From the NCBI GenBank assembly GCA_038140435.1, contig JAYQGE010000001.1:16228-80227 (forward strand): DNA of 64,000 nucleotides, read 5' to 3'. The notes beneath the pieces are model-generated. The model was not told the DNA's origin. It searched no databases and saw only the letters and a program-made list of their open reading frames with translations. Each line of letters starts with the position of its first letter. The first letter of the stretch is position 1. The position numbers and the translations under genes are program-made. Source of the stretch: Rhodospirillaceae bacterium. Lineage in GTDB: Bacteria; Pseudomonadota; Alphaproteobacteria; UBA6615. Below, one piece after another: positions 33,795 to 63,085 of this stretch.

Positions 33795-35198
33795 CTAGAC
33801 CAGCCCCTCGGCCTGCACATGCTCCCAGGTCTCGTCGAGCGCCTTCGAGAAGCGCTCGATGCAGACACCGATCTGGTCTTCCGTGATGATCAGCGGCGGG
33901 CAGAGCGCGATCGAGTCCGACGGCAGCGCGCGCGAGATCAGGCCGTGGGCCTGGGTGCGCGCCATCATCCCCGGCGCGACCTTCGCGGCCGGGTCGAACA
34001 GGCCCTTGTTCTCCTTGTCCGGCGTCAGCTCGAGTGCCGCGAACAGGCCGACGCCGCGCACCTCGCCGACGAGCGGGTGTTCCGCGAACTGCCGCATCTG
34101 TTCCTGGAAGGTGCCCATGACCGAACGCACATGGCCCAGCGTGTCGCGCTCCTCGTAGATGCGGAGCGTCTCGAGCGCGACGGCGGCGGAGACCGGGTGG
34201 CCCGAATAGGTGTAGCCGGTGTTCCACATGCCGAACTTGTCGCTGCCCTCGCGCAGCACCTGGTAGATCTCGTCGGTCATCAGCACCGCGCCGATGGGCA
34301 GGTAGGCCGACGACAATGCCTTGGCGATCGACATCAGGTCCGGCTGGATGTTGTAGGTCTCGCAGGCGAACATGTTGCCCGTGCGCATGAAGCCGGTGAT
34401 CACCTCGTCGGCGATCATCAGGACGTCATGCTTCTTGAGGACGGCCTGGATCTTCTCGAAATAGGTCGCGGGCGGCGGGATCAGCCCGCCGGCGCCCATC
34501 ACCGGCTCGGCGATGAAGGCGGCGACCGTGTCCGGGCCCTCACTGACGATCAGGTCGTCGAGCTCCTGGGCCAGCCGGCCCGCGAAATCCTCCTCGCTCT
34601 CGCCGTCCTGTCCCTCGCGCCAGTAGTGCGGGGTCGTGACGTGGAGGAACCGGTCAAGCGGCACGTCGAAGCCCTTCTGGGCGTAATCCACGCCGGTCAG
34701 GCTCGAGGCGGCCAGCGTGATGCCGTGATACGCCTTGTGGCGGCCGATGATCTTCTTCTTCTCGGGCTTGCCGCGGGCGTTGTTGTAGTACCAGACGATC
34801 TTCACCTGGGTGTCGTTGGCCTCGGAGCCGGAGTTGGTGAAGAACACCTTGCCCATCTCGACCGGGGCCATCTTGACCAGCTTCTCGGCGAGGTCGATGG
34901 CAACCTCGTTCGACCGGTGGGTGAAGCCCTGGATGTAGGGCAGGCGCAACATCTGCTCGTAGGCGACCTTGGCAAGGCGTTCCTCGCCGAAGCCGAGCGA
35001 GGTGCACCAGAGGCCGGCCATGCCCTCGATATATTCCTTCCCCTGGTCGTCATAGACATAGATGCCCTTGCCCTCGTTCACGATGAACGGGCCGTTCTGC
35101 TCGTGCACCTTGGGGTTGGTGAACGGGTGCAGGTAGTACGCAATGTCGCGCGCTGCGGGGGAATTGGGTGCAAACTGGGTGCGGTCGGACGGTGCCAT
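33795..35198 (-). CDS. class III (omega-) aminotransferase, beta-alanine/taurine-pyruvate aminotransferase-like
   Basis: ..YLHPFTN.., GMAGLWC, FTNSGSEANDT, ADEVITGF plus PLP-Lys (SIAKAL). 467 aa. Confidence 0.85.
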   Translation of the reverse strand: MAPSDRTQFAPNSPAARDIAYYLHPFTNPKVHEQNGPFIVNEGKGIYVYDDQGKEYIEGMAGLWCTSLGFGEERLAKVAYEQMLRLPYIQGFTHRSNEVAIDLAEKLVKMAPVEMGKVFFTNSGSEANDTQVKIVWYYNNARGKPEKKKIIGRHKAYHGITLAASSLTGVDYAQKGFDVPLDRFLHVTTPHYWREGQDGESEEDFAGRLAQELDDLIVSEGPDTVAAFIAEPVMGAGGLIPPPATYFEKIQAVLKKHDVLMIADEVITGFMRTGNMFACETYNIQPDLMSIAKALSSAYLPIGAVLMTDEIYQVLREGSDKFGMWNTGYTYSGHPVSAAVALETLRIYEERDTLGHVRSVMGTFQEQMRQFAEHPLVGEVRGVGLFAALELTPDKENKGLFDPAAKVAPGMMARTQAHGLISRALPSDSIALCPPLIITEDQIGVCIERFSKALDETWEHVQAEGLV

Positions 35199-35290
35199 GA
35201 CGCTCGCCTTCGTATGTTCTGGTGCGTTTCCGGGGGAACGTTAAGCGCCCGGGGCGGTCGCGGCAAGCGGTAGGGCGCTGAGCCCCGGAT

Positions 35291-36706
35291 TCAAGCCGTT
35301 TCCAGCCGCTCGAACTCGTCCTTACCCGCGTTGGGGCCGGCCTGGACCTCGATCAGGGTCAGGGCGCGGTTGTCCGCCGTGGCCAGCGCGTGGGCCGCGC
35401 CGGCCGGGATCGAGATGGACTCGCCCGGCTCGAGCGCGCGGGTCTCGTCCTCCAGGGTCACCTCGGCGGTGCCGTCGACGATCATCCAGTGCTGGGCGGC
35501 ATGCCGGTGGCGGCGCAGGTTCACGCGGCCGCCCGCATGGACGGAGATGCGCTTGACGTGGAAGCCGGGGCCGGTGTTGAGGGTCTTGTACCAGCCCCAG
35601 GGGCGATAGACCTCCGGGAAGGTGACCGCCTCGGAGCGGCCCGACTTGCCGAGCGCCTCGACGATGTCGCGCACCTGCTGCACCTCGTCCTTGGGGGCGA
35701 CGAGCACGGCATCCGCCGATGCGACGACGACAAAGTCCTCGAGGCCGATCGCGGCGACGAGCGTGCCGTCGCTGCGCAGGTAGCAATCGCGCGCGCCGAC
35801 CTGCACGACGTCGCCGACGACGACATTGCCGGCGTTGTCCTTGGCGCCGATCTCCCACAGTGCGCGCCAGGATCCGACGTCCGACCAGCCCATGTCGACG
35901 GGTACGACGGCGGCGCGGTCGGTCTTCTCCATGACCGCGTAGTCGATCGAGGTGGCGGGGGCGGCGGCGAACGATTCCGCGTTCAACCGCAGGAAGTCGA
36001 GGTCCTCGCTGCCGCCGGCCAGCGCCGCGCGGCACGCGATGCCCGTCTCGGGCGTCAGCCGGTCGATCTCGGCGATGAGCGTGTCGGCCCGGAACACGAA
36101 CATGCCGCTGTTCCAGAAATGGTTGCCGCCGTCCACGAAGGCCTGCGCGGTCGTGAGATCGGGCTTCTCGACGAAGCCGTCGACAGCGCGCACCCCGTCC
36201 AGGCCGTCCACGGATCCGCCCGCGGCGATATAGCCAAAGCCCGTCTCCGGTGCGCGCGGCGCGATCCCGAAGGTGACGAGGCGGCCGGACTCGGCGGCGG
36301 CTGCTGCCATGTACGCGGCCTCCCGGAACGCAGCCGCGTTCTGGACCACATGGTCCGAGGGCAGCACCAGCATGATTGCGTCGGGGTCGCGGTCCAGCAG
36401 CCAAAGCGCGGCCGCGGTCAGGGCCGGCGCCGTGTTGCGGCCGATGGGCTCCAGCAGGATTCCCTGCGGGGCCTGTTCCTGGCGGCGGAGCTGTTCGGCC
36501 ACCATGAACCGGTGCTCCTCGTTGCAGACCACCAGCACCGGCGCGAAGCGCTGGGGCACGCCGACCCGTAGCGCGGTTTCCTGCAGCATCGTCTGGTCGC
36601 CCGCGAGCGGCAGGAACTGCTTCGGGTAGTCCCTGCGGCTCATGGGCCACAGGCGAGTTCCCGCGCCGCCGGACAGGATGACGGGTGTGATCAGGCCGCT
36701 CGCCAA
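35291..36706 (-). CDS. mannose-1-phosphate guanylyltransferase / mannose-6-phosphate isomerase (type II, bifunctional with C-terminal cupin)
   Basis: N-terminal PVILSGGAGTRLWP nucleotidyltransferase motif. C-terminal cupin (..HRHAAQHWMIVDGTAEV..). Confidence 0.85.
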   Translation of the reverse strand: MASGLITPVILSGGAGTRLWPMSRRDYPKQFLPLAGDQTMLQETALRVGVPQRFAPVLVVCNEEHRFMVAEQLRRQEQAPQGILLEPIGRNTAPALTAAALWLLDRDPDAIMLVLPSDHVVQNAAAFREAAYMAAAAAESGRLVTFGIAPRAPETGFGYIAAGGSVDGLDGVRAVDGFVEKPDLTTAQAFVDGGNHFWNSGMFVFRADTLIAEIDRLTPETGIACRAALAGGSEDLDFLRLNAESFAAAPATSIDYAVMEKTDRAAVVPVDMGWSDVGSWRALWEIGAKDNAGNVVVGDVVQVGARDCYLRSDGTLVAAIGLEDFVVVASADAVLVAPKDEVQQVRDIVEALGKSGRSEAVTFPEVYRPWGWYKTLNTGPGFHVKRISVHAGGRVNLRRHRHAAQHWMIVDGTAEVTLEDETRALEPGESISIPAGAAHALATADNRALTLIEVQAGPNAGKDEFERLETA

Positions 36707-36809
36707 GAAAGATCTCCTTCTAGGGCACCCTTGCTAGCGGACTTTCGTGTGCAGGCCAACGCCGGTGTGGCTTCGAGACAGGAATATTGCCCTGCGCTAC
36801 CATGATCGC

Positions 36810-37634
36810 ATGAAAATCAGCGTCATCCAGATGAACACCCGCAGCGACAAGGCCGCCAACCTCGAACAGGCGCGCACGCTGGCTGCGCGCGCAATCGCCG
36901 CGGACGCGCCCGACATGCTGGTGCTGCCCGAGGTCTTCGCGTTCATGGGCAGTTCGGTCGCCGACAAGCGCGCCGCGGCCGAGGAGCTTCCCGAGGCGGG
37001 CGAGACAGGCGGCGATGCCTATGAGACTCTGCGGACGCTTGCGATGGAGCACGGTGTGTTCGTCCACGGCGGCAGCTTCGTCGAGCGGTCGGGAGACGAT
37101 TGCTTCAACACCACCATCGCCTTCGATCGCGCAGGTGTCGAGCTCGCGCGCTACCGCAAGATCCACCTGTTCGACGTCTCGACGCCGGACGGCCGCGAGT
37201 ATCGGGAATCGGACACCTTCGGAGCGGGTCGGGACATCGTCACCTACGCGGCCGGGGACATCACGGTCGGCTGCAGCATCTGCTACGACCTGCGCTTCGC
37301 GGAGCTCTATCGCGCGCTCGCCGAGGCGGGCGCCCAGGTGATCATGGTGCCGGCGGCCTTCACCCTGCAGACCGGCAAGGATCACTGGGAGCCGCTGTTG
37401 CGCGCGCGTGCCATCGAGACCCAGACCTATGTCGTTGCGGCGGCCCAGACCGGCACGTATCACGAGGGCAACGACGAGCGGGCGAGCTGGGGCCATTCGA
37501 TGATCGTCGATCCCTGGGGCCACATTCTTGCCCAGGCGCGCGAGGGAACAGGCCACGCGACGGCGACCGTTGAACTGGATTATCTCGATACGGTGCGCCA
37601 ACGTATCCCGGTCGCGCAGCACCGGGTGTTATGA
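36810..37634 (+). CDS. carbon-nitrogen hydrolase (nitrilase superfamily; Nit2/omega-amidase-like)
   Basis: E-K-C triad context (..LVLPEVF.., ..YRKIHLFD.., ..CSICYDLRF..). Confidence 0.8.
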   Translation: MKISVIQMNTRSDKAANLEQARTLAARAIAADAPDMLVLPEVFAFMGSSVADKRAAAEELPEAGETGGDAYETLRTLAMEHGVFVHGGSFVERSGDDCFNTTIAFDRAGVELARYRKIHLFDVSTPDGREYRESDTFGAGRDIVTYAAGDITVGCSICYDLRFAELYRALAEAGAQVIMVPAAFTLQTGKDHWEPLLRARAIETQTYVVAAAQTGTYHEGNDERASWGHSMIVDPWGHILAQAREGTGHATATVELDYLDTVRQRIPVAQHRVL

Positions 37635-37664
37635 GGCCGGACGACGGGCCAAAGGGGAACTGAG

Positions 37665-38843
37665 ATGAACATCAAGGACGAGATCGCCCGCGACCACGAA
37701 CTGCTGACCGTGTGGCGCCGGGACTTCCACGCCCATCCCGAGCTGGCGTTCCAGGAGGAGCGTACCGCCGCGCTGGTCGCCGAGCGGCTCGAGAGTTTCG
37801 GGGTCGAGGTCCATCGCGGTATCGCCAAGACCGGCGTCGTCGGCCGGCTGAGCGTCGGGACGGGCAATCGCGCGATTGCGCTGCGCGCCGACATGGACGC
37901 GCTGCCGATGGAGGAGGGCAACGATTTTGCCCACGCCTCGGAGACACCCGGCCTCATGCATGGCTGCGGCCATGACGGGCACACGACGATGCTCTTGGGT
38001 GCGGCGAAGTATCTCGCCGAGACGAAGCAGTTTGACGGCACGGTCTATTTCGTGTTCCAGCCGGCCGAGGAGGCCGAGGGCGGCGCCGCGGTGATGGTCA
38101 AGGAGGGCTTGTTCGAGAAGTTCCCGGTCGAGTCCGTCTACGGCATGCACAACTGGCCGGGAATGCCCGTGGGCGAGTTCGCCATCGCATCCGGGCCCAT
38201 GATGGCGGCCTTCGACATCTTCGACCTCACCATTCGCGGGCGGGGCAGCCATGCGGCGATGCCCCACCAGGGGGTCGACAGCATCCTCATGGCGTCGAAG
38301 GTGGTGGACGCGTTGCAAAGCATCACGAGCCGGAACATCGACCCCATCGACTCCCTCGTTGTGTCCGTTACCCAGATCCACGGCGGCGACGCCTATAATG
38401 TGATCCCGGACGAGGTGGTGCTGCGCGGCACGGTGCGGTCGTTCAGCGAGGCGGTGCGCGACGGCGTGGAACCGGCGATGCGCCGGATCGCCGACGGGGT
38501 GTGTGCGGCGTTCGGCGGCACCGCGGAGCTGCGCTACGAGCGGCGCTACCCGGCGACCGTGAACAGCGTTGAGGAGACCGAGCATGCCGAGGCAGCGGCG
38601 CTGGCAATCGTCGACGATGCGAAGATCGACCGCAAACCGGTCCCGAGCATGGGCTCGGAGGACTTCGCCTACATGCTGCGCGAGAAGCCGGGGAGCTATG
38701 TCTGGGTCGGCAACGGGGCAGCCGAGGGTGGCTGCATGCTTCACAACCCGGGCTATGACTTCAACGACGAGATCATTCCCATCGGGGTGACCTACTGGTC
38801 CGAACTGGTGGAGCAGGTGCTGCCCGCGGACCGGTCGGAATAG
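37665..38843 (+). CDS. M20-family amidohydrolase (hippurate hydrolase / aminoacylase type)
   Basis: ..MHGCGHDGH.. metal-binding motif, FQPAEE. 392 aa. Confidence 0.85.
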   Translation: MNIKDEIARDHELLTVWRRDFHAHPELAFQEERTAALVAERLESFGVEVHRGIAKTGVVGRLSVGTGNRAIALRADMDALPMEEGNDFAHASETPGLMHGCGHDGHTTMLLGAAKYLAETKQFDGTVYFVFQPAEEAEGGAAVMVKEGLFEKFPVESVYGMHNWPGMPVGEFAIASGPMMAAFDIFDLTIRGRGSHAAMPHQGVDSILMASKVVDALQSITSRNIDPIDSLVVSVTQIHGGDAYNVIPDEVVLRGTVRSFSEAVRDGVEPAMRRIADGVCAAFGGTAELRYERRYPATVNSVEETEHAEAAALAIVDDAKIDRKPVPSMGSEDFAYMLREKPGSYVWVGNGAAEGGCMLHNPGYDFNDEIIPIGVTYWSELVEQVLPADRSE

Positions 38844-38910
38844 GCGCCAACAGGCCTAATTTCCGTTAACCATATGGCAAGGCTTCGGCGCCACTCTGTG
38901 CCCCGAGCCT

Positions 38911-39201
38911 ATGTCACTGATTCTGCATATCGTAATCATCGCGTCCTATTTCGTGCTGGCGACCGCCGTGGCACTGGTTGCGCCCGCGCTTGTGCCGTCC
39001 CTGACGGCCGACCTGGCGCCGCTGGCCGCGGGCATCGTGTTCGTCGCCTGCGCGCTCGCGCACCTGGTGTTTGCCCAGTCGGAACGCAACCGGCGCCTCG
39101 TCGAGGAGCTGTCCCTGGTGCGCCGCCAGACGCGCGAGATCGCCGAGGACCTGCTTAACACCCAGACCCAGGCGCTCCAGATGCGCCAGGTGATCGACTA
39201 G
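38911..39201 (+). CDS. N-terminal fragment (2 TM + coiled coil) of a membrane-anchored EAL protein, ending at an in-frame TAG
   Basis: Two TM helices, then a helical linker. Same reading frame as the EAL ORF 33 nt downstream. Confidence 0.5.
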   Translation: MSLILHIVIIASYFVLATAVALVAPALVPSLTADLAPLAAGIVFVACALAHLVFAQSERNRRLVEELSLVRRQTREIAEDLLNTQTQALQMRQVID

Positions 39202-39234
39202 GCCGGCCGCGCCGGCGAGCAGCGAGTCTCGGAG

Positions 39235-40146
39235 GTGGTTTCCGAGGTCAAGGTGCTGCAGGGGCTGATCGAGGCCTTCTCGCGCAAGCAGGCCGAAAGC
39301 GCGCTCTCCGGCGAGGTCGAGCTGGCCGAACGGCCGCGGCTGGTTGCGGTCGAGGGCGGCAAGGCGGTCAGCGCGCCGTCGGCCGACGATCTGGGGAGCG
39401 TCGACGACCCGGAGGTGATCGACATCGTTCGCGAGGCGCTGCGCCTCGACCGGGTGGATGTCTATCTGCAGCCGATCGTCAGCCTGCCCCAGCGCAAGAA
39501 CCGCTACTATGAATGCTACACCCGGATCCGCAGCGAGGACGGCACGGTCATCGGCCCGGGCCAGTATATCGGCGTGGCGGAGCGCGAGGGGATGGTCAGC
39601 GCCATCGACAACATGCTGCTGTTCCGCTGCGTGCAGCTGATCCGGCGCACCCAGAAGCGCAACTACGACACGTCCTTCTTCTGCAACATCTCCCGCGAGA
39701 GCCTTGGCGACACCGCCTTCATCGGCGACTTCGTGGACTTCGTCTCGGAAAATCCCGACCTGGCGCCGAAGCTTTACTTCGAATTCGGCCAGAGCGACAT
39801 CGAGACCGCCCCGCCGGCGACCATCGGCAACCTGGCCCGGCTCGCGGACCTCGGGTTCCGCTTCTCCCTCGACCAGGTCACCCATCTCAACCTGGACATC
39901 CAGGGGCTGTCGGCCAAGAACTTCCGGTTCGTGAAGCTCGACGCATCCTTCCTGCTCGACCGGGACCGGGATCTCGTCGGCGATATCGCCCGCGAGGACA
40001 TCAAGAAGATGCTCGATCGTGACGGGCTCGATCTGATTGTCGAGAAGATCGAGGACGAGGCCCAGCTGGTCGAGCTGCTCGATTTCGAGATCGACTTCGG
40101 CCAGGGCTACCTGTTCGGCGAGCCCCGCCTCAGCCGCACCGACTGA
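39235..40146 (+). CDS. EAL-domain protein (c-di-GMP phosphodiesterase-like); likely the C-terminal part of a gene interrupted by an in-frame stop
   Basis: EAL signature (VREALRL..LQPIVSL), DFGQGY, and the ..N..E..ER.. catalytic residues. No plausible RBS for an independent start. Confidence 0.6.
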   Translation: MVSEVKVLQGLIEAFSRKQAESALSGEVELAERPRLVAVEGGKAVSAPSADDLGSVDDPEVIDIVREALRLDRVDVYLQPIVSLPQRKNRYYECYTRIRSEDGTVIGPGQYIGVAEREGMVSAIDNMLLFRCVQLIRRTQKRNYDTSFFCNISRESLGDTAFIGDFVDFVSENPDLAPKLYFEFGQSDIETAPPATIGNLARLADLGFRFSLDQVTHLNLDIQGLSAKNFRFVKLDASFLLDRDRDLVGDIAREDIKKMLDRDGLDLIVEKIEDEAQLVELLDFEIDFGQGYLFGEPRLSRTD

Positions 40147-40166
40147 CGCGCGCTTTCTTCTCGCCC

Positions 40167-41066
40167 GTGGACATGGCATACGCCTGTTCCATGAACACCG
40201 AGTTGCTTCCCGGCTTCCGCAGCATATCCGAGCGCTACGATCACCTGATCGTCGATCTGTGGGGCACCCTGCATAACGGCATCGAGCCGCTGCCCGGCGC
40301 GATCGAATGTCTGGAGCATTTCGGCGGCGCGGGCGCGCGGATCGTTCTCCTGTCCAACGCGCCGTTCCGGGTGTCCGGCGTTCGAGACGTGCTCGGCCAT
40401 ATCGGGATTCCCGAGACGATCTACGAGGATGTCTTCTGTTCCGGCGAGATCGCCTGGCGCGCCATTCGTGATCGCGCCGATCCCTGGCACGCGAAACTGG
40501 GCCGTCGTGCCGCGTTCATCGGGCCGGATCGCCATCGGCCCATGCTCGACAATCCCGGCATCGACGGCGCGGCGGACTTCGAGGATGCGGACTTCGTGAT
40601 CTGCACCGGGCCGCGCGACGCCGGTCATGCCCTCGACGACTACATCCCCGACCTCGAGCGCGCCGCCGCGGCGAAGCTGCCGATGATCTGCACCAATCCG
40701 GACCGCGAGGTTTTGCGCGGCGATGCGCGCGAGATCTGCGCCGGCGCGATCGCCGAAGCCTACGAGACGCGCTTCGGCGGCGACGTCGCCTGGCACGGGA
40801 AGCCGTACCGCCCCGTCTATGACGAGGTTCTCCGGATCCTCGGCGAACCCGATCGCGCGCGGGTCCTGATGATCGGCGACGGTCTCGGGACCGATGTCGC
40901 GGGAGCGGCGGTCGCAGGCATCGATGCGGCCTTCATCGTCGGCGGAATTGCCGCCGAACGACTGGGTGCCGCGCCGGGTGCGCTGCCGGACCCGGAGCGG
41001 CTTGCGACCCTGCTCGATGAGGTGGGCCAGGCGCCGCGCTACGCGATGCCCGGGCTGTTCTGGTAA
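40167..41066 (+). CDS. HAD-superfamily hydrolase, subfamily IIA
   Basis: DLWGTLHNG (DxD-like motif I variant), MIGDGLGTDV motif IV. Confidence 0.7.
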   Translation: MDMAYACSMNTELLPGFRSISERYDHLIVDLWGTLHNGIEPLPGAIECLEHFGGAGARIVLLSNAPFRVSGVRDVLGHIGIPETIYEDVFCSGEIAWRAIRDRADPWHAKLGRRAAFIGPDRHRPMLDNPGIDGAADFEDADFVICTGPRDAGHALDDYIPDLERAAAAKLPMICTNPDREVLRGDAREICAGAIAEAYETRFGGDVAWHGKPYRPVYDEVLRILGEPDRARVLMIGDGLGTDVAGAAVAGIDAAFIVGGIAAERLGAAPGALPDPERLATLLDEVGQAPRYAMPGLFW

Positions 41067-41114
41067 CGATTCTCTTACGTAAACCGGCATAGGTATCGGC
41101 ACCGGATAGCGCCG

Positions 41115-42998
41115 ATGCGGCGCGGGGCGGAAGGACAATCGGTAGGACGGGAATTGGGCATTCACCGCCACGCGTGGAACTGGTCCTTCGATGCGCCGCC
41201 CGAGACGATCTGGCCGATCCTGTCGGACACCGCGCGTTTCAACGAGGCGGCGGGGCTCCCGAAGCACGAAATCACCGAAACTCCTCAGGATGACGGTTCG
41301 GTGCTCTACACGGCCGAGGCGAAGCAGGGGCCGTTCCATATGGCCTGGCGCGAGGAGCCGGTGAACTGGATCGCGAACCGCTGGTTCGAGCATCGCCGCC
41401 ACTTTACGCGGGGGCCGTTCCGGATGGTCTTTGCGAACCTCGAGATCACGTCAGCAGGCGCCGACGGCGCGCGCAGCGAGGTGCATTACACCCTTGAGGT
41501 CGAGGCCGCGAACCTGGTGGGCGAGATTCTCCTGCGGACAGTCTTCTTCAAGGCCACCGACAAGATGTTCGGCGCGCTGATCGACGCGACGCGGGACTAC
41601 GCACGGGGAAATCGCGAGACTCCGTTCGACGCCACGCCACCCGAACTGGACCTGGCCGCGCGCCAGCGTGTCGATCGTGCGATCGCGGCCATCAACGAAA
41701 CCCCGCATGCCCACGGTCTTGCGGAAGCTTTGGCGGCACACGCGACCACTGCCCAGGAGGTGGATGTGGTCAAAATTCGCCCGCTGGCGCTGGCCCGTCG
41801 TTGGGATGTGCCCGCCCGCGATGTGATCGAGCTTTGCCTCGAGGCGACGCGTGCGGGCCTGCTCGACCTGCGCTGGGATATCCTGTGCCCGCGCTGCCGG
41901 GTCGCCAAGTCGATCTCCGCAGGACTCGACGAGTTGCCGACGGGCGCCCATTGCGGGACGTGCAACATCGACTATGACCGCGACTTCTCGCGCAACGTCG
42001 AACTGAGTTTCCAGCCGGCGGCAGGTATACGGCCACTGGCCTTCGGCGAGTACTGCCTGTTCGGCCCCATGAGCACACCGCATATCGTCGCCCAGGTCCG
42101 TGTCGCGGCGGGGGAGCCCCGCGAGCTGGAGGCCGAACTCGCACCCGGCCGCTATCTGGCGCGCACGCTCGAGGCCGGACCAGAGGCGGAACTCGACCAC
42201 GAGGGCGGCGGTTTCCCCGAGGTTCTGATCGGCGATGGCAGCGTGACGACGGGCGCGCCGGCCGGGCCGGGCTTGCTGCGGCTCGTCAACACGTCCGCGC
42301 ATGACCGGAATGTCGTGATCGAGGAGCGCGCCTGGGAGCGCGACGCCCTGACAGCGGACAGGGTCACCGCGATGCAGGCGTTCCGCGACCTGTTCTCGGA
42401 CCAGGTCCTGCGTCCCGGCGACGAGGTGGCGATCCAGCGGGTCACGCTGATGTTCACCGACCTTCGTGGGTCCACGGCACTTTATGAAACCATGGGGGAT
42501 GCGCGGGCCTACGGGCTGGTGCGCGACCATTTCGCCTTCCTGACCGGCATCGTGCGCGATCACGAGGGCGCGGTCGTGAAGACCATCGGCGATGCCGTGA
42601 TGGCGGCGTTCCTGGAGCCGGGCCATGCGCTTGCCGCGGGGTTGGAGATCCAGGCTGCGGTTGCGGCCTTCAACCGCGATCATGCGCCGACGGATGGCGG
42701 CGAGGAGCTGGTCGCTATCAAGGTCGGCATTCACGAAGGCCCGTGCATCGCGGTCAACCTGAACGACCGGCTGGACTATTTCGGGACGGCGGTGAACCTA
42801 ACTGCCCGTCTCGAGGGGCAGAGCCGGGGCGGCGATATCGTGATCTCGAAGAGCCTCGCCGCCGACCCGGGCGTCGCTGCGCTCCTCGAGGGCCGCGCAT
42901 TGAGCGAGGAATCGGCGGAACTGCGGGGATTCGACGCTGCCGTGCCGTTCCTGCGCATCGACCGCTCTGCCGGCGCCCCGGTCGTGGCGGGCCGATAG
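41115..42998 (+). CDS. class III adenylate/guanylate cyclase with a large N-terminal sensor region containing a Cys4 zinc ribbon
   Basis: C-terminal cyclase homology domain ([12 protein letters not shown].., [16 protein letters not shown]). The N-terminal about 400 aa carry CPRC..x20..CGTC. Confidence 0.8.
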
Positions 42999-43047: not shown

Positions 43048-45218
<2,171 letters not shown>

Positions 45219-45219
<1 letters not shown>

Positions 45220-48200
45220 TGTCGGGTTCCGGGGACGACTGGCGGGCCGACGAGGACGCGTCCGGGCCCGAACCGGAGCGCGAGGATGCGCCCGACGACC
45301 CCTTCGAAGACGTCTTCGACGACGACGAAGGATTCGATCAGCCCCGTGACGACCGCGACGGCGACAGGTATGGCGAGCCAGCGCCCCGCCGCCGCGCAGG
45401 CCTCAACTTCATGAGCTGGGTGCTGGGCCTGGCCGGGGCGGCGTGGCTCGCGTTTTTCGCCATGTTTGTCGCGCGCGCCATCGGCTGGTCGCTGGTGCCC
45501 CAGCTTCTGCCCTACGAGGTCGGCAGCCTCGTCGCGGGCCTGCTGGTGCCGCCAGGCTTTCTGTTCGCGCTCGCGGTTCTGGCCGCGCGCCGCCGCCGGC
45601 TCAACGACACACTGGCCGGGCTCGAGGAGCAGATTGCGCGCCTGGAATCGCCCTTTTCCAACGCGAACTCCGAACTGACGGAGCTTGGCGAGATGCTCGT
45701 CCTTTACGGGCAGGCCCTGCAGGAGGCGGTTGCGGATGCCCGTCGGCAGATGTCCGAGCTGCGGGGCGGATTCGCGCGCGAGGCGTCGGAGCTCGCCCAG
45801 ATCACCGAGGCACTCGCCAACATGATGATCTCGGCCAACGAATCCGCCGGAACCCAGGCCGGGGTTCTTGCGGACATGACCAAGCAGATCGAGGGGAACC
45901 TTCAGAAGATCAGCGGCGTCGGGAAGGGCGAGGCCGAGGTGATCGACGCCGCCTCGCGTCGCGCCGAGGAAGTCGTACAGCAGCTTCTGTCCGCGCTGCA
46001 TGAGCAGATCGCGGCCATCGAGTCCGGCTTCGAGAAGGCGGTCAACGAGACGGTCGGGCGCGTGTCGGGCACGGGCGATACGGCGGTCGAGGAAATTCGC
46101 GCCGTGGCGAACCAGCTCGCCGAACGTGCCCGGGAGGCCGTCGACACGGTGACCCAGCAGGCCGATGAGGCGGGCACCGCCATCGGCGACGCGGGTGCAC
46201 GAGCGGCCGGGGCAATTGCAGAGGCGTCGGATGACGCGCTGAGCAAGTCGGCGGCGCTGGGTGAGGAACTGGAACGGCGGTCGGCGGACGCCGGGGAGGC
46301 GTTCGAGGCGGCGATCGGTCGGGCGTCGGAGAGGCTTGCCGCCATGTCGGAGGAAGCCGCCGGACACGCGGAGCGGCTGGCGGCCGAGATCTCCGGCCAG
46401 ATGCAGCAGGCGGGGGGCGCACTCGACCGTGTCGTCGAGGCCATGGCCGCACAGCTCTCGGAGGTTTCGGACCAGGCCGGTCAGCGGGCGCGGGAGATCA
46501 CCGAGGCCGCTGCTGCGGAGATGGCACAGGCCGGGCGCGCGGTCGGCGCAAGCGCCGCGGAAACCCGCCAGGAGATCGAACGCATGACCGCGAACCTGCG
46601 CGAGCAGGCAGACGCCTTTGCCGCCATATCTCGCGCGAGCGTTGCGCAGGTGGATGCTGCGAGTGAGCGGCTGAACGCGTTTGCCGACGGTCTCGCGGCG
46701 GCGGGAGAATCGGCCGACGAACGCGCACGCGCTCTGGGCGACACGTATCGCAGCGAGGCGAGCGCGCTGGAAACAGTCGCGCGCAGCACGTCCGCCGAAG
46801 CAGAGCGACTCACGGCTGAACTGCGGAGCGCAGCGGGGGCGCTGTCTGCGTCCGCCGGCAGCATCGCGACCGGCGCGGCCGAGGCGCGCGAGGCGCTGGG
46901 AGAACATGCGCAGCTCGTGGAGACCGAGTATGCGCAGACGCTGAGCCGCGCCCAGCGCACCCGCGACGAGATTGTCGAGCAGCGGGAAGTCCTGGAATCC
47001 GCGGCGGATGCGGCGTTGGCCAGGATCACGGCGATCCGCGACACGCTGGGCGACAGCAGCCTGTCGCTCGATCAGGCCGCGGAGCGCGCCAGCGGCCAGC
47101 TGCGCGGCCTGCGTGAGCAGCTCGGCAACGATCAACATTTCATGTCGGAGATCGTCTCCGGCGCGGAGACCCGCTTCAGCGCGCTGGGCGACACACTGCG
47201 TGACAGCGCAGGCGATGTGACCGAGGCCTCCGGAATCGCCGAGGCCGCGGCGCGCAGTGCCCACGAGGCCTTGCGCCGCAACTCCCAGGAGCTGACGAAT
47301 GCCAGCGTGACCGCCGGTGCGCGGGCCGAAGCGCTCGGCGAGTCCCTGACCCAGCATACGGAGGCCCTCAACCAGTCGGCAGCGGACTCGCTGTCCCGCC
47401 TGACGGAGGTCCGGGACATGATCCAGCGCGAGAGCGACGCGGTCGAGGCGACGGCACGGGCGGCGATGGAAGGCCTGTCCGATGTTGCCGGCGCCATGCG
47501 CCAGCGTCGTGAAGAACTGACGACCAGTACGGAGGAGATGCGCCGCGCCGCCAACGATACCGAGGAGTCGCTCGCCGCCCGCAGCCGGGATGTGCGCGAG
47601 ACGATGGAATCGATTCTCGAAAGCTGGCGCGACCTCGGCGATGTTCTGGTCAGCCGTACGGACGCCCTGCGCGAGACCGGCGAGACCGCCGTGACGCGTG
47701 CCGAGGCGGTCCTTCAGACCATCGATCGCCACGCGGGTGATCTGTCGACGTCTGCCGATCGGATGGAAGGGCGTGTCAACGGGCTTGGCGAGCAGCTGCG
47801 CGAGCAGACGCGCGACATGCAGTCGGCGATCGAGCAGGTGGCGGAACGCGCCGAGACCATCGCCGCGACGTTCCGGATGCAGGAGCGGGCGCTTGTCGAG
47901 GCCGCCGAGGATGCCGGCCGGAAGGCCGATGAAGTGCGGGTGTCGTTCATCGATGCCAACCGGGGCGTGTTCCTGCACACCGTCAACCGCGTGCTCGATA
48001 CGCTCGGTTCACTGGGAAACGAAATCGAGGAAGCGCTGGATGGTGCTGCGGCGCCGGAGATCATGCGCAGGTTCTCGAAGGGTGACCGGGGGGTCGCGCT
48101 TCGCCGCATTTCCGCGCGCGCGGGAGATCCGATCGCGGTCAACCGCGTGCGTGAGCTCTACGAGGATGACGAGGACTTCCGGACGCTGGCGACGCGCTAC

Positions 48201-48335
48201 CTGCGCGAATTCGAGCGCCTGCTGGCCCAGGCAGGCGATGCCGATCCGGATGAACTTCTGAGCGCCAGTCTGCTGACCGCCGACGTCGGCAAGGCCTATC
48301 TGCTGCTGTCCCGCGCCGTCGAGCGCCACAAGTAA
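45219..48335 (+). CDS. large (1038 aa) membrane-anchored coiled-coil protein of unknown function
   Basis: ATG overlaps the mcm stop (TGATG). Acidic disordered N-terminus, two TM helices, then about 900 aa of Ala/Glu/Arg-rich amphipathic heptad/11-mer repeats. High GC3. Confidence 0.7.
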
Positions 48336-60858: not shown

Positions 60859-61013
60859 GGACTGCTATCTTGTCGCGAGTCGGTCCGGCAACGGATTCGC
60901 CGCGTTCTCGCCATTGTTCGGGTGTCATAATAGGCGTTCGCGCGTGGCCCTGCGAGATCGAAACCGCAGATCGTGACGTTCGCCGCGCCGATCGGATTGA
61001 CCGGGAGAATGAC

Positions 61014-61145
61014 TTGGCCAAGTACATCATCGTCCTCTTTCTTGCCGTGATCGTCGCCGGCGGCGTGTTTCTCGCCACCTGGGATATTCCCGCGCCGAGC
61101 GAGAGCGTCGAGAAAACCATTCCCAACGACCGCTTCCCGCGTTGA
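61014..61145 (+). CDS. possible small (43 aa) single-TM protein
   Basis: TTG start. Hydrophobic core IIVLFLAVIVAGGVFLA. Stop overlaps the start region of the next gene. Weak evidence. Confidence 0.2.
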   Translation: MAKYIIVLFLAVIVAGGVFLATWDIPAPSESVEKTIPNDRFPR

Positions 61146-61153
61146 TCGACGTC

Positions 61154-63085
61154 ATGCGCCGGCTCGCCGCCACCCTTGCCTGTGCGCTTGCGCTTTCGGT
61201 GCCGCCTGCGCTGGCGCAGCAGTCCGGGCCCATTCGCCTGACCCCGCTGCCGCCACCGACAGCCGATGCGCCCGAAACCCGCACAGAGGGCCAACTGTAC
61301 TCGGGGCCGCAGGCTGACCCGTCGACGTCCGCGCCGATCGAGACACCCGGTGGCGTACTCATTCGTGGTCTCGATGCCGTGGCGGAAGACGCCGTAGGTG
61401 TGCTCTCCGCCGCCAACGGCAGCCTGGGTGACGACATGTGGGCCGGCACCGACCGTGCGACGGCCATCCGCCTGCTCGAGGCGCTGCCACCCGCGTTGCC
61501 GTTTTCGGACACACGGGATCTTGCCCGCCGGCTGTTACTGTCCATCGCGACGCCGCCGGCCGGCGATAGCGAGACATCCGGCCTGCTGGCCGCGCGGCTT
61601 GCAGGACTCGTCGCCATTGGTGCGCCGGCGGATGCGATCGAGCTCGCGCGCGCCGCCAGTTCGCGCAGCGTGCCCGATCACATCGCACAGGCGGTCACCA
61701 GCGCGCATTTCCTGCGCGGCGATGTGGCGGCAGGCTGCGATGTGCTCGCGCGCTTCGAGGGTGGCTATGTGGAACCCTTCTGGCAGAAGGCGCTGATCGT
61801 TTGCCAGATCGCGGACGGGAAGGGCGCGGAGGCCGCGCTCGGCCTCGACTTGTTGCGCGAGGAAGGCACGGAGGCCGACCGGTTTTTCGAGACGATCGCC
61901 TACACCGCGACGGCGGGCTCCGCGATCGCGCCGGAACAGCTCGCCGGGCCGGGGACGCCCGACATCCTGACATTCGCGCTGCTGACCATCACGGACGCCG
62001 AGCTTCCGGACTGGATGCTGACCAGCGACGACCCGGCGATCCTGCGCGCAGTCCTTGCGTTGCATCTCGTGGATCCCCTGCGCAAGCTCGCGCGGGCGCA
62101 TGACGCATTGCGGACCGGCCAGATCAGCGCGGCGGAGGTGGTCGCCATCTACGAGGGGCTCGAGGCCGACGATGAGGCCATCGCGGCGGCGCTTCTTGAT
62201 CCCGATTCCGTCGAGCGGGACCTCTGGCTCGCTTATCTCTATCTCGCCGCGCGCGGCCAGACGGTGGCCATTGCTCGCTCGGAGGCGCTCTGGGAGGCGT
62301 GGAGCCTGGCGGAGGCAGCGGAACTCGACGATATCGTCATGGCCACGACCGCGCGGCTGCTCGCGGACATTCCCGCGACGAGCGACTTTGGCTGGCTCGC
62401 CGCGGGTGCGACCCGGGCCGCGCTGCTCGCGGGCGAGGACGACCTCGCCATCACCTGGTACCAGCTGGTGGTGCGCCAGGCGAGCGCGGTCGCCGACATG
62501 GCGCGGGCGACGGCGATGCTGTGGCCCGAGATGCGGGTCATCGGCCGAGACCCGGTTCAGACCGAGGCTGCGATGTCGCCTGAGCCCGAAGCCACGCCCG
62601 ACCCGCGCGCCACGATCGCGGCAAACGCGGTGCCGCCGGTCGGCGCCGCAGTCTCGGCTCCGCGGGCGCAGCCGGTTTTCCCGATCGAGGCCCGCGCGCC
62701 CGTGCCGTGGAGCCCAACGCGCCTGTCCCGCTGGATCGACCTCGCGGAAAACAATCCGGGCACCGCCGAGGTCGGGGCGGCGCTCTACCTGCTCCAGGTG
62801 CTGGGCGATCCGGTCACCGGCGAACACTGGGCGGCTGCACCGATCGGAAACGAGGCGACGCTCGGGGCCATGCCGGGTGTTGCGGCACTTGCCGGGTTGG
62901 CGCGCGCGTCGGCGGCCGAGCGCCGGGCCGAGACGATTCTTTACGCGCTGATCGTGCTGGGGCAGGCGGGCGCGCCGCCCCATGCCGGGATTGTCGGCAG
63001 CGTCGTCCGCGGTCTGCAACGCGTGGGCCTCGACGCGGACGCCCGGTCGATTGCCCGTGCGGCCCTGGTCGCACCCGCGCAATGA
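61154..63085 (+). CDS. large secreted alpha-helical hypothetical protein
   Basis: Signal peptide MRRLAATLACALALSVPPALAQQ, Ala/Leu-rich helical-repeat-like body, 644 aa. Stop overlaps the xerD start (ATGA). Confidence 0.6.
   Translation: MRRLAATLACALALSVPPALAQQSGPIRLTPLPPPTADAPETRTEGQLYSGPQADPSTSAPIETPGGVLIRGLDAVAEDAVGVLSAANGSLGDDMWAGTDRATAIRLLEALPPALPFSDTRDLARRLLLSIATPPAGDSETSGLLAARLAGLVAIGAPADAIELARAASSRSVPDHIAQAVTSAHFLRGDVAAGCDVLARFEGGYVEPFWQKALIVCQIADGKGAEAALGLDLLREEGTEADRFFETIAYTATAGSAIAPEQLAGPGTPDILTFALLTITDAELPDWMLTSDDPAILRAVLALHLVDPLRKLARAHDALRTGQISAAEVVAIYEGLEADDEAIAAALLDPDSVERDLWLAYLYLAARGQTVAIARSEALWEAWSLAEAAELDDIVMATTARLLADIPATSDFGWLAAGATRAALLAGEDDLAITWYQLVVRQASAVADMARATAMLWPEMRVIGRDPVQTEAAMSPEPEATPDPRATIAANAVPPVGAAVSAPRAQPVFPIEARAPVPWSPTRLSRWIDLAENNPGTAEVGAALYLLQVLGDPVTGEHWAAAPIGNEATLGAMPGVAALAGLARASAAERRAETILYALIVLGQAGAPPHAGIVGSVVRGLQRVGLDADARSIARAALVAPAQ

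Follow-up and report, generated by a model that had tools for sequence, protein, structure and literature searches.

Does the locus at 38911..40146 of this alphaproteobacterial DNA hold two genes, or one gene that has been broken? In the window, by which we mean the whole stretch of 64,000 nucleotides that was analysed, ATG 38911 starts a 96-codon open reading frame (ORF) closed by TAG 39199..39201, and the same frame runs on through 11 sense codons (39202..39234) to GTG 39235 and then to TGA 40144..40146. The junction peptide reads ..MRQVID*AGRAGEQRVSEVVSEVKVLQ.. An earlier note on this DNA had described two same-frame ORFs parted by a TAG and 11 sense codons, an arrangement that was found as described on re-reading, and had offered a recent nonsense pseudogene, a sequencing error or stop-codon read-through as explanations.

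Homology of the fused reading frame

The fused translation of ORFs 38911..39201 and 39235..40146 comprises 411 aa, in which two transmembrane (TM) helices precede a long helix and an EAL domain. A protein search with this product returned uninterrupted proteins of ~410 aa by the hundred, with E-values down to 7.6e-259, and the translation was 100% collinear with P0001/P0126 and with about 120 full-length homologues among the matches listed. Because the fused product is collinear with hundreds of unbroken proteins of this length, the ORF pair is no chance juxtaposition. In a profile search, the NCBIfam TipF model NF051880 matched residues 2-407 in full-length collinear fashion with 316.3 bits; as this score lies under the equivalog cut-off of 600, the protein is named TipF-like and not a TipF equivalog. 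Many of the homologues carry a TipF annotation at JGI. The features of the locus are collected in Table 1. When the gene carries TAG, codons 1-96 are the sole part whose translation is certain, and gene callers report this 96-aa product on no fewer than 23 contigs.

Table 1. Coordinates of the features of the interrupted locus within the window.
Feature	Position	Strand	Basis
Ancestral tipF-like gene, 411 codons plus stop, broken at codon 97	38911..40146	+	homologue collinearity, NCBIfam TipF model
N-terminal fragment, codons 1-96: TM1, TM2 and first ~40 residues of the post-membrane helix	38911..39198	+	sequence, AlphaFold
Premature amber codon TAG, Q97*, CAG to TAG by C-to-T at 39199	39199..39201	+	allele comparison
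Eleven sense codons (AGRAGEQRVSE) of the ancestral frame, from the stop to the first downstream GTG	39202..39234	+	sequence
Candidate weak restart, GAGG + 5 nt + in-frame GTG 39253	39244..39255	+	sequence
EAL domain, fused-protein residues 173-405, degenerate receptor type	39427..40125	+	Pfam PF00563
TTAACCAT, ungapped CtrA-type motif, putative regulatory site	38866..38873	+	motif match; conserved upstream of orthologues

Ancestral state and distribution of the amber codon

The earlier note had asked whether orthologues keep a sense codon at the position of the stop, and close orthologues do, in the form of CAG (Gln). Gln occupied the stop column in all close orthologues in the protein alignment, a sense codon stood at this position in 29/29 aligned orthologues and in 79/80 genome loci, and the conspecific alleles read CAG. 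In orthologues the next 11 codons (39202..39234) are also preserved as part of the coding region. The codon context is GAC CAG GCC in L001 and L088-L091 and GAC TAG GCC in the window, L002-L005 and L092-L100. Moreover, the nearest intact allele, P0126, equals the window product in full apart from Q97. Judged from this alignment, TAG is the derived state, produced by a C-to-T change from CAG.

At least 23 contigs carried the TAG allele; their sources were JGI, Logan (eight SRA runs), ENA and one NCBI MAG. This count derives from assemblies and not from reads, and many of the samples probably come from the same few studies. TAG carriers include SRR26337536-45, ERZ27313177, JGI 3300061617/3300061872/3300063451/3300066316 and the MAG GCA_038119115.1, and CAG carriers include ERZ27313045, ERZ27313156, JGI 3300018426/3300020184 and the MAG GCA_049602635.1. 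One of the ENA contigs bears a MEGAHIT-style k141 name. TAG haplotypes were mutually distinct at other sites (99.83-99.99% identity), and CAG haplotypes showed 99.66-99.83% identity to the window. A sequencing or assembly artefact, with CAG as the real base, would agree with the one-base difference between the window and the intact alleles and with the CCAGG context of the site, since CCAGG methylation could in principle cause long-read base-calling errors. However, the T at 39199 recurs in independent assemblies from four archives and on haplotypes that vary elsewhere, ENA samples with neighbouring accession numbers are divided between CAG (two samples) and TAG (another), and variants were not in excess at CCWGG sites, where 4/194 inner C/G positions were polymorphic among 18 haplotypes against 4.5 expected. 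The artefact reading is thus effectively refuted.

As the CAG haplotypes are 99.7-99.8% identical, both alleles are placed in one population. The linked site 39225 has A in every TAG haplotype and in the CAG haplotype L090, and C in the remaining CAG haplotypes, a pattern that fits a single origin of the TAG mutation on the A-at-39225 background. L095, which carries TAG at 98% identity, was considered as a sign of an old or introgressed allele and was dropped as unreliable; blocks of window type and of L001 type form a mosaic in its contig, which is possibly an assembly chimera. An exact-pattern scan of the genome collection for both alleles gave 0 matches. The species is absent from the GTDB representatives. 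L006, an exact-pattern match in the metagenome collection (two matches), was set aside as a chance match, since the sequence around it is different and unrelated.

Age of the allele and mutational context

Comparison of the window allele with L001, a 96%-identical relative, gave a dN/dS of 0.021 at a dS of 0.10, indicating that the gene was under constraint until very recently. The window allele breaks 0/45 invariant and 0/76 near-invariant columns, and none of the 14 TAG haplotypes showed a further stop or a frameshift. The low dN/dS, the intact invariant columns and the lack of a second lesion together point to a recent event, and the absence of signs of relaxed constraint (extra stops, frameshifts, hits to invariant residues) in the window lineage fits an allele of very recent origin. 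A synonymous/nonsynonymous test among the TAG haplotypes was powerless, as variants were too few and several also occurred in CAG haplotypes. Taken with the CAG codon of the close orthologues, these results favour the recent nonsense pseudogene among the explanations first offered.

The base change turns CCAGG into CTAGG. Hotspots at the 5-methylcytosine of CCAGG are known in E. coli lacI, as are classical amber CAG-to-TAG alleles, and the window shares both the base change and the pentanucleotide context with them. In contrast to lacI, the window lacks a Dcm-type hotspot signal: neither CCAGG (124 vs. 136) nor CCTGG (139 vs. 147) was depleted, and no DNA methyltransferase was found within the 64-kb window. 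A Dcm-type 5-methylcytosine deamination hotspot was therefore rejected, with support from neither the CCWGG counts nor the methyltransferase scan.

Predicted architecture of the intact protein

Two N-terminal TM segments are recognised from the hydrophobicity of residues 2-28 and 35-55. For the intact allele, AlphaFold predicts helices at residues 2-27 and 33-131, with a pLDDT of 84-91 across the first 80 residues, values below 50 past residue 100 and, in this monomer model, below 50 at 101-130; within that low-confidence part of the predicted long helix, E112, V113, Q117 and L119 are invariant. These models bear out the earlier description of two N-terminal TM helices and of a helical linker that crosses the stop. 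The stop is thus predicted to sit within the continuous helix 33-131 and not at a domain boundary.

A single Pfam EAL domain was detected in the fused product (E=5e-41). Its signature is degenerate: the EAL triplet is replaced by ECY, DDFG by LDQV (second Asp = Gln322) and ELTE by FEFGQ (second Glu = Gln294), while E201, R205, N259, E291, D321, K342, E381 and Q398 are kept. Among 50 homologues, E201 was invariant, and D321 and K342 were at least 90% conserved. The best matches of the domain were the receptors LapD (3pjt/3pju/3pjw) and FimX (3hv8/3hv9/4j40), both by sequence (E 1.8e-18 to 1e-12) and by fold (Foldseek E 8.5e-15, TM about 0.77 to target), and the likeness extends to a partly missing catalytic signature (second Asp of DDFG, second Glu of ELTE, EAL triplet). 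Unlike LapD and FimX, which have GGDEF-EAL dual modules and other N-terminal sensor or output parts, the EAL domain here comes straight after a module of two TM segments, a helix and a linker. The locus had been taken to encode a phosphodiesterase-like sensor; the EAL domain itself stands, whereas the protein is better described, from its sequence signature, as TipF-like, a receptor whose EAL domain is degenerate.

Comparison with Caulobacter TipF

TipF of Caulobacter crescentus is a flagellar assembly and placement factor with two predicted membrane-spanning segments in its first 115 residues, and E211, D331 and K352 are essential (Davis et al., 2013, PMC3792480). The protein described here shares with it the two N-terminal TM segments and a C-terminal degenerate EAL domain, and the long helix predicted between them may correspond to the coiled-coil region of TipF. 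The counterparts of the essential residues are conserved, E211/D331/K352 corresponding to E201/D321/K342 by a constant offset of 10 and motif identity and not by direct alignment to the Caulobacter sequence. A candidate cell-cycle-type promoter motif may be counted as a further likeness: TTAACCAT lies 45 nt upstream of the start codon, is the sole copy in the 64-kb window (0.12 expected) and is identified as an ungapped CtrA-type binding motif from PMC6180460. Among 76 orthologous loci, the exact motif was found within 150 nt upstream in 26, and TTAA-N7-TTAA lay upstream in nine, one of which was also among the 26. This recurrence makes TTAACCAT a probable promoter-proximal regulatory site of the tipF-like gene, and the motif is intact upstream of the TAG allele. 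Promoter and terminator scans returned nothing informative.

The differences from Caulobacter concern host and setting. The host is a Rhodospirillales-like uncultured alphaproteobacterium, and, unlike the Caulobacter gene, the window copy is broken at codon 97 and lacks flagellar neighbours; no flagellar genes were found in the 64-kb window, nor adjoining the homologues in the Azospirillum/Niveispirillum loci. Furthermore, Caulobacter TipF binds c-di-GMP, localises to the pole and has TipN, PflI and FliG as partners, traits that are putative for the present protein. By analogy, the function lost with the amber codon is probably c-di-GMP-dependent, cell-cycle-coupled flagellum placement or assembly, as suggested by homology with Caulobacter TipF and by the CtrA-type motif that is conserved ahead of the gene.

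Premature stops in sister lineages

Independent premature TAG codons were found in two sister lineages: Q26* in three assemblies (L101-L103), and Y401* in L010/P0020. In the Q26* lineage (P0023/P0025), the substitutions G399V and D267G also fall at invariant columns. These independent stops suggest repeated loss, and also that loss of the tipF-like gene is tolerated, or even favoured, in the clade. Nonsense polymorphisms in motility genes are common. Three further candidate disruptions were rejected, namely L023 (a run of N at a scaffold gap), P0021 (a frameshift on a 1.6x-coverage contig) and P0074 (located at a contig start).

In Caulobacterales, tipF and other c-di-GMP effectors were lost convergently along with flagella (PMC12700997). 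The pattern here resembles that loss in being repeated and lineage-specific, with three independent premature stops in sister lineages. The Caulobacterales study, however, found the gene absent from flagella-less genomes, whereas the present locus is at the point-mutation stage and still polymorphic.

Read-through and codon reassignment

Might the amber codon be translated? Near-cognate decoding of UAG in bacteria typically inserts Gln, the ancestral residue, so that minor read-through by tRNA-Gln would restore the exact wild-type, full-length protein and the allele would be hypomorphic but functional instead of null. The intact promoter motif fits this account, as does a TAG allele that is common and widespread without secondary decay. 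Several results count against it. TAG was conserved as an in-frame stop in none of the orthologues, the RNA 3' of the stop folds no better than shuffled sequence (MFE of 39190..39290, z = -0.02), and TAG is an ordinary frequent terminator that ends about 20/48 coding ORFs in the window; the missing decay is equally explained by the youth of the allele, given the dN/dS of 0.02. Read-through, one of the explanations in the earlier note, accordingly lost ground, and a leaky functional allele is considered unlikely. We hold as still less likely the stronger proposal that the amber codon acts as a dosage switch, in which Gln read-through would supply a low amount of wild-type protein and the TAG allele would be selectively maintained. 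If true, TAG (and perhaps Q26* too) would be a low-motility or bet-hedging variant beside CAG and not gene loss.

The premature stop in the three sister lineages is always TAG, never TGA or TAA, as would be expected if TAG were a sense codon here through reassignment, pyrrolysine or an amber suppressor. The gene is GC-rich, and 77-86% of its one-step nonsense mutations give TAG, so three of three is unsurprising (P about 0.46-0.64). In addition, none of the annotated window ORFs needs an internal TAG, many of them end in this codon, and where single assemblies from these populations show other premature stops, the codon is TAA. No tRNA genes were found in the 64-kb window. TAG-specific recoding was therefore rejected on the one-step bias and the TAA stops, and reassignment is given a negligible probability.

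Restart sites and the downstream ORF

A functional split would turn the locus into a 96-aa stub and a separately started, soluble coil-EAL protein, with function retained or changed. In-frame GTG codons lie 34 and 52 nt past the stop. Gene callers begin the downstream ORF at the first of these, GTG 39235 (303 aa); GTG 39253 would give a 297-aa soluble coil-EAL piece, and one such 297-aa call is known (P0131). Moreover, Caulobacter TipF without its first 115 residues is soluble and retains c-di-GMP binding in vitro (PMC3792480), which would be compatible with a working downstream piece. The downstream piece had been said to lack a credible ribosome-binding site. This holds for GTG 39235, where GGAGG 39231..39235 overlaps the start codon and leaves no spacer, but not for GTG 39253, which is preceded by GAGG 39244..39247 at a 5-nt spacing and is possibly, on its sequence, a weak translational restart site. 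The same GTG and GAGG are present in intact alleles, however, where they encode conserved residues, and the cut falls inside the predicted continuous helix.

Relatives also speak against a split. Apart from L010, each of the 80 genome loci holds a single ORF, and the apparent partial matches are either contig-end cuts or full-length ORFs with a divergent N-terminus; on these grounds L035, L045, L046, L066, L074 and L080 were rejected as naturally split or short orthologues. Orthologues that end at this position and are followed by a separate EAL gene, the case named earlier as contradicting a broken gene, were thus not found among the 80 genome loci. The other two disrupted lineages are cut at the unrelated codons 26 and 401. 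A functional split is therefore regarded as very unlikely, and the downstream 303-codon ORF is best seen as a remnant and not an independent gene.

Interpretation

We place a probability of about 0.8 on the reading that a single gene occupies the locus, that it encodes, as judged from homology, a TipF-like inner-membrane c-di-GMP receptor, and that its TAG allele is an ordinary young loss-of-function allele, null or strongly hypomorphic, and hence an incipient pseudogene. The intact protein would begin with two TM helices, followed by a long helix of coiled-coil type, a flexible linker and the degenerate EAL domain. A single, very recent C-to-T transition, on the haplotype with A at 39225, changed Gln97 (CAG) to amber, and the resulting allele segregates at appreciable frequency beside the intact allele in one species-level uncultured alphaproteobacterial population. 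Translation from the normal start would halt after 96 residues, within the helix that links the EAL domain to the membrane anchor, leaving a membrane stub devoid of the c-di-GMP-binding domain. Since the stop removes the whole EAL domain, the allele is most likely null or strongly hypomorphic. The frequent, widespread and undecayed state of the allele would also fit partial function, and both the restart site 52 nt downstream of the stop and near-cognate decoding by tRNA-Gln argue against a strictly null reading.

For annotation, 38911..40146 is to be treated as one interrupted tipF-like gene, and not as a hypothetical 96-aa protein next to an independent EAL phosphodiesterase, nor as a case of recoding. 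The finding will not surprise specialists. It shows the inactivation of a gene at its outset, while both alleles circulate within the same species. If the gene governs flagellar placement as TipF does, the stops would point to motility having been lost or tuned down repeatedly, possibly under selection, in an uncultured alphaproteobacterial clade, and the allele could then serve as a natural marker of motile versus non-motile genotypes in time-series metagenomes.

Gene layout and protein family

In the window, a 96-codon ORF runs from ATG 38911 to TAG 39199..39201 and is followed in the same frame by 11 sense codons, GTG 39235 and, finally, the stop codon TGA 40144..40146. The bridged product of 411 aa contains EAL as its single Pfam domain (residues 173–405, E=5e-41) and is collinear from end to end with hundreds of unbroken proteins of ~410 aa (best E=7.6e-259). 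This collinearity and the shared frame show that ORFs 38911..39201 and 39235..40146 are two halves of one gene, confirming the earlier note, which had described one EAL gene split by an in-frame TAG.

The top curated match of the bridged product was the NCBIfam flagellar assembly factor TipF model (316 bits, residues 2–407), a score that does not reach the equivalog cut-off of 600 bits, and many homologues carry the name TipF in JGI annotation. An AlphaFold model built on the intact allele (mean pLDDT 76) gave a layout that agrees with Caulobacter TipF, in which two N-terminal membrane segments (within residues 1–115) are joined by a coiled coil to a degenerate EAL domain, whose binding of c-di-GMP (KD about 0.4 μM) is not accompanied by hydrolysis (Davis et al., 2013, PMC3792480). 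Moreover, E201, D321 and K342 are the counterparts of the essential TipF residues E211, D331 and K352 at a constant offset of 10 and are invariant or near-invariant among 50 homologues. Part of the catalytic signature is degenerate, with ECY in place of EAL, LDQV in place of DDFG and FEFGQ in place of ELTE. Among solved structures, LapD and FimX come nearest, in sequence and fold alike, through their c-di-GMP receptor EAL domains. Taken together, these features led us to call the predicted product a TipF-like c-di-GMP receptor, not a strict TipF equivalog, and we infer a flagellar function for the gene.

Features of the tipF-like gene, its predicted product, related lesions and neighbouring ORFs
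Feature	Position	Strand	Details
CtrA-type motif TTAACCAT	38866-38873	+	Single copy in window
TM1 helix	Residues 2-27		AlphaFold model, intact allele
TM2 and conserved helical region, one unbroken helix	Residues 33-131		AlphaFold monomer; low confidence past residue 100
Disordered linker	Residues 132-166		AlphaFold model, intact allele
EAL fold	Residues 167-405		AlphaFold model, intact allele
Q97* (CAG to TAG)	Window species		At least 23 contigs, four archives
Q26* (CAG to TAG)	P0023/P0025 lineage (77% identity); L101 2926-2928 region, also L102, L103		With G399V, D267G in one variant, otherwise invariant columns; three separate assemblies
Y401* (TAC to TAG)	L010/P0020 (77% identity); L010 5079-5081 (JAYOFO010000035.1)		Last 11 residues removed, conserved YLFGEP tail lost; NCBI and JGI contigs
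DUF5939 and class III nucleotidyl cyclase gene	41115-42998	+	Two genes downstream of tipF-like gene
1049-aa ORF	45186-48335	+	Flanked by methylmalonyl-CoA mutase and MeaB; all matches sub-threshold, to apolipoprotein-like helical repeats; the gene called at this place in L088 (intact-CAG locus) has no Pfam match
690-aa ORF	61013-63085	+	Coding-like composition; no Pfam match

Origin of the TAG allele

Comparison with orthologues, proposed earlier as a check for a sense codon at the stop, revealed Gln at position 97 in all close orthologues and GAC CAG GCC in intact alleles, compared with GAC TAG GCC in the window. The intact 411-aa allele P0126 (ENA and JGI assemblies) matches the window product at every residue but Q97. 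Gene calls gave the 96-aa product on at least 23 contigs, which fill 28 index blocks. The TAG loci are spread over JGI (four metagenomes), Logan (eight assemblies of SRA runs), ENA (one assembly, its contig named in MEGAHIT style) and NCBI (a MAG). The TAG haplotypes are 99.83–99.99% identical to the window and vary among themselves at other positions. This recurrence across independent assemblies and differing haplotypes rules out, for practical purposes, an assembly error or the sequencing error that the earlier note had considered. One further TAG locus, L095 (GCA_038119115.1, JAYOJE010000079.1; 98.0% identity), was set aside: along window 34732-41823 it alternates between window-identical blocks, TAG included, and blocks identical to the type of L001, a 96% identical relative, a pattern explained by recombination or by a chimeric MAG contig.

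The CAG haplotypes are 99.66–99.83% identical to the window, which places both alleles in one population. At the linked synonymous site 39225, every TAG haplotype carries A, as does L090 alone among the CAG haplotypes, the rest having C; this pattern fits a single origin of TAG on an A background. A Dcm deamination hotspot (CCAGG to CTAGG) was considered and rejected, with 4 CCWGG inner-C variants against 4.5 expected and no depletion of CCWGG. CTAG is strongly under-represented in the window (18 observed vs. ~51 expected from trinucleotide counts), and the amber mutation adds one.

Comparison of the gene with L001 gave 30 synonymous and 2 non-synonymous differences, the stop not counted, and a dN/dS of 0.021 at dS 0.10; the value for the neighbouring HAD gene is higher (0.087). 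Among the family columns, the window allele is intact at all 45 invariant and all 76 near-invariant ones, and second lesions are absent from the TAG haplotypes. These results indicate strong constraint until shortly before the amber mutation.

Read-through and restart

Stop-codon read-through, also raised in the earlier note, found no support. TAG is a regular and unusually common terminator, ending ~20 of the 48 coding-like ORFs in the window (about 40%). None of the ORFs annotated there has to be read through a stop, and neighbours in the same frame proved to be distinct genes. In addition, the RNA 3′ of the stop is no more stably folded than shuffled controls (z = -0.02), the stop is absent from every relative compared, and a naturally split gene occurs in none of the 80 genome loci. 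The TAG lies midway along a predicted unbroken helix and not at a domain boundary. The premature TAG thus appears not to be recoding. Conjecturally, Gln might be inserted at the stop at a low level, regenerating the wild-type protein exactly, or translation might restart weakly at the in-frame GTG 39253, where GAGG lies upstream at 5-nt spacing.

Premature stops in sister lineages

Q26* is independent of Q97*, and the orthologue that carries it resembles a pseudogene of greater age. The presence of TAG in all three lineages was dropped as a meaningful pattern, since in a gene as GC-rich as this 77–86% of the one-step changes to a stop give TAG and three of three is therefore expected (P about 0.46–0.64). 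Two further premature stops, both TAC to TAA, lie in neighbouring genes and in single assemblies, at window 42053 in the DUF5939-guanylate cyclase (L004 only) and at window ~37150 in the CN-hydrolase (L095 only, 2420 region); rare variation or assembly error may account for them. Three other apparent disruptions were artefacts of a scaffold gap (L023), a contig at 1.6x coverage (P0021) and a contig start (P0074).

A premature stop was found in 1 of 80 genome representatives, compared with three lesions in the window's narrow clade, which suggests that the gene is dispensable or disadvantageous there. The recurrent stops parallel the Caulobacterales, in which tipF is reported to have been convergently lost together with flagella (PMC12700997).

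Upstream motif and neighbourhood

TTAACCAT occurs once in the 64-kb window (0.12 copies expected), 45 nt before the tipF-like start codon. It is the ungapped variant of the site bound by CtrA, which governs flagellar genes in a number of alphaproteobacteria (PMC6180460). Of 76 orthologous loci, 26 have the exact motif in the 150 nt before the gene, and many more have near variants; the full TTAA-N7-TTAA site occurs in 9 of the 76, one of which also has the exact motif. TTAACCAT is embedded in a longer block, GTTAACCATAT.GCAAGGCTTG, conserved upstream in many orthologous loci (among L008-L087). This putative CtrA-type motif is a hint, providing an additional, independent regulatory clue.

The neighbours are metabolic in the window and in named relatives, with no flagellar genes around the homologues in either. 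The order ManC, CN-hydrolase, M20 peptidase, tipF-like, HAD, cyclase and methylmalonyl-CoA mutase is kept in all three sister lineages. A link between the tipF-like and cyclase genes, both of cyclic-nucleotide signalling, is possible.

Discussion

We put at about 0.8 the probability that the amber allele of this TipF-like c-di-GMP receptor gene is young, causes loss of function and segregates in the population. The recent nonsense pseudogene suggested previously is thus favoured, the stop being derived from a conserved Gln codon in a gene under strong constraint until recently. The sole certain product of the TAG allele is a 96-residue membrane stub. The amber allele is of an ordinary kind and has modest value for the population genomics of motility.
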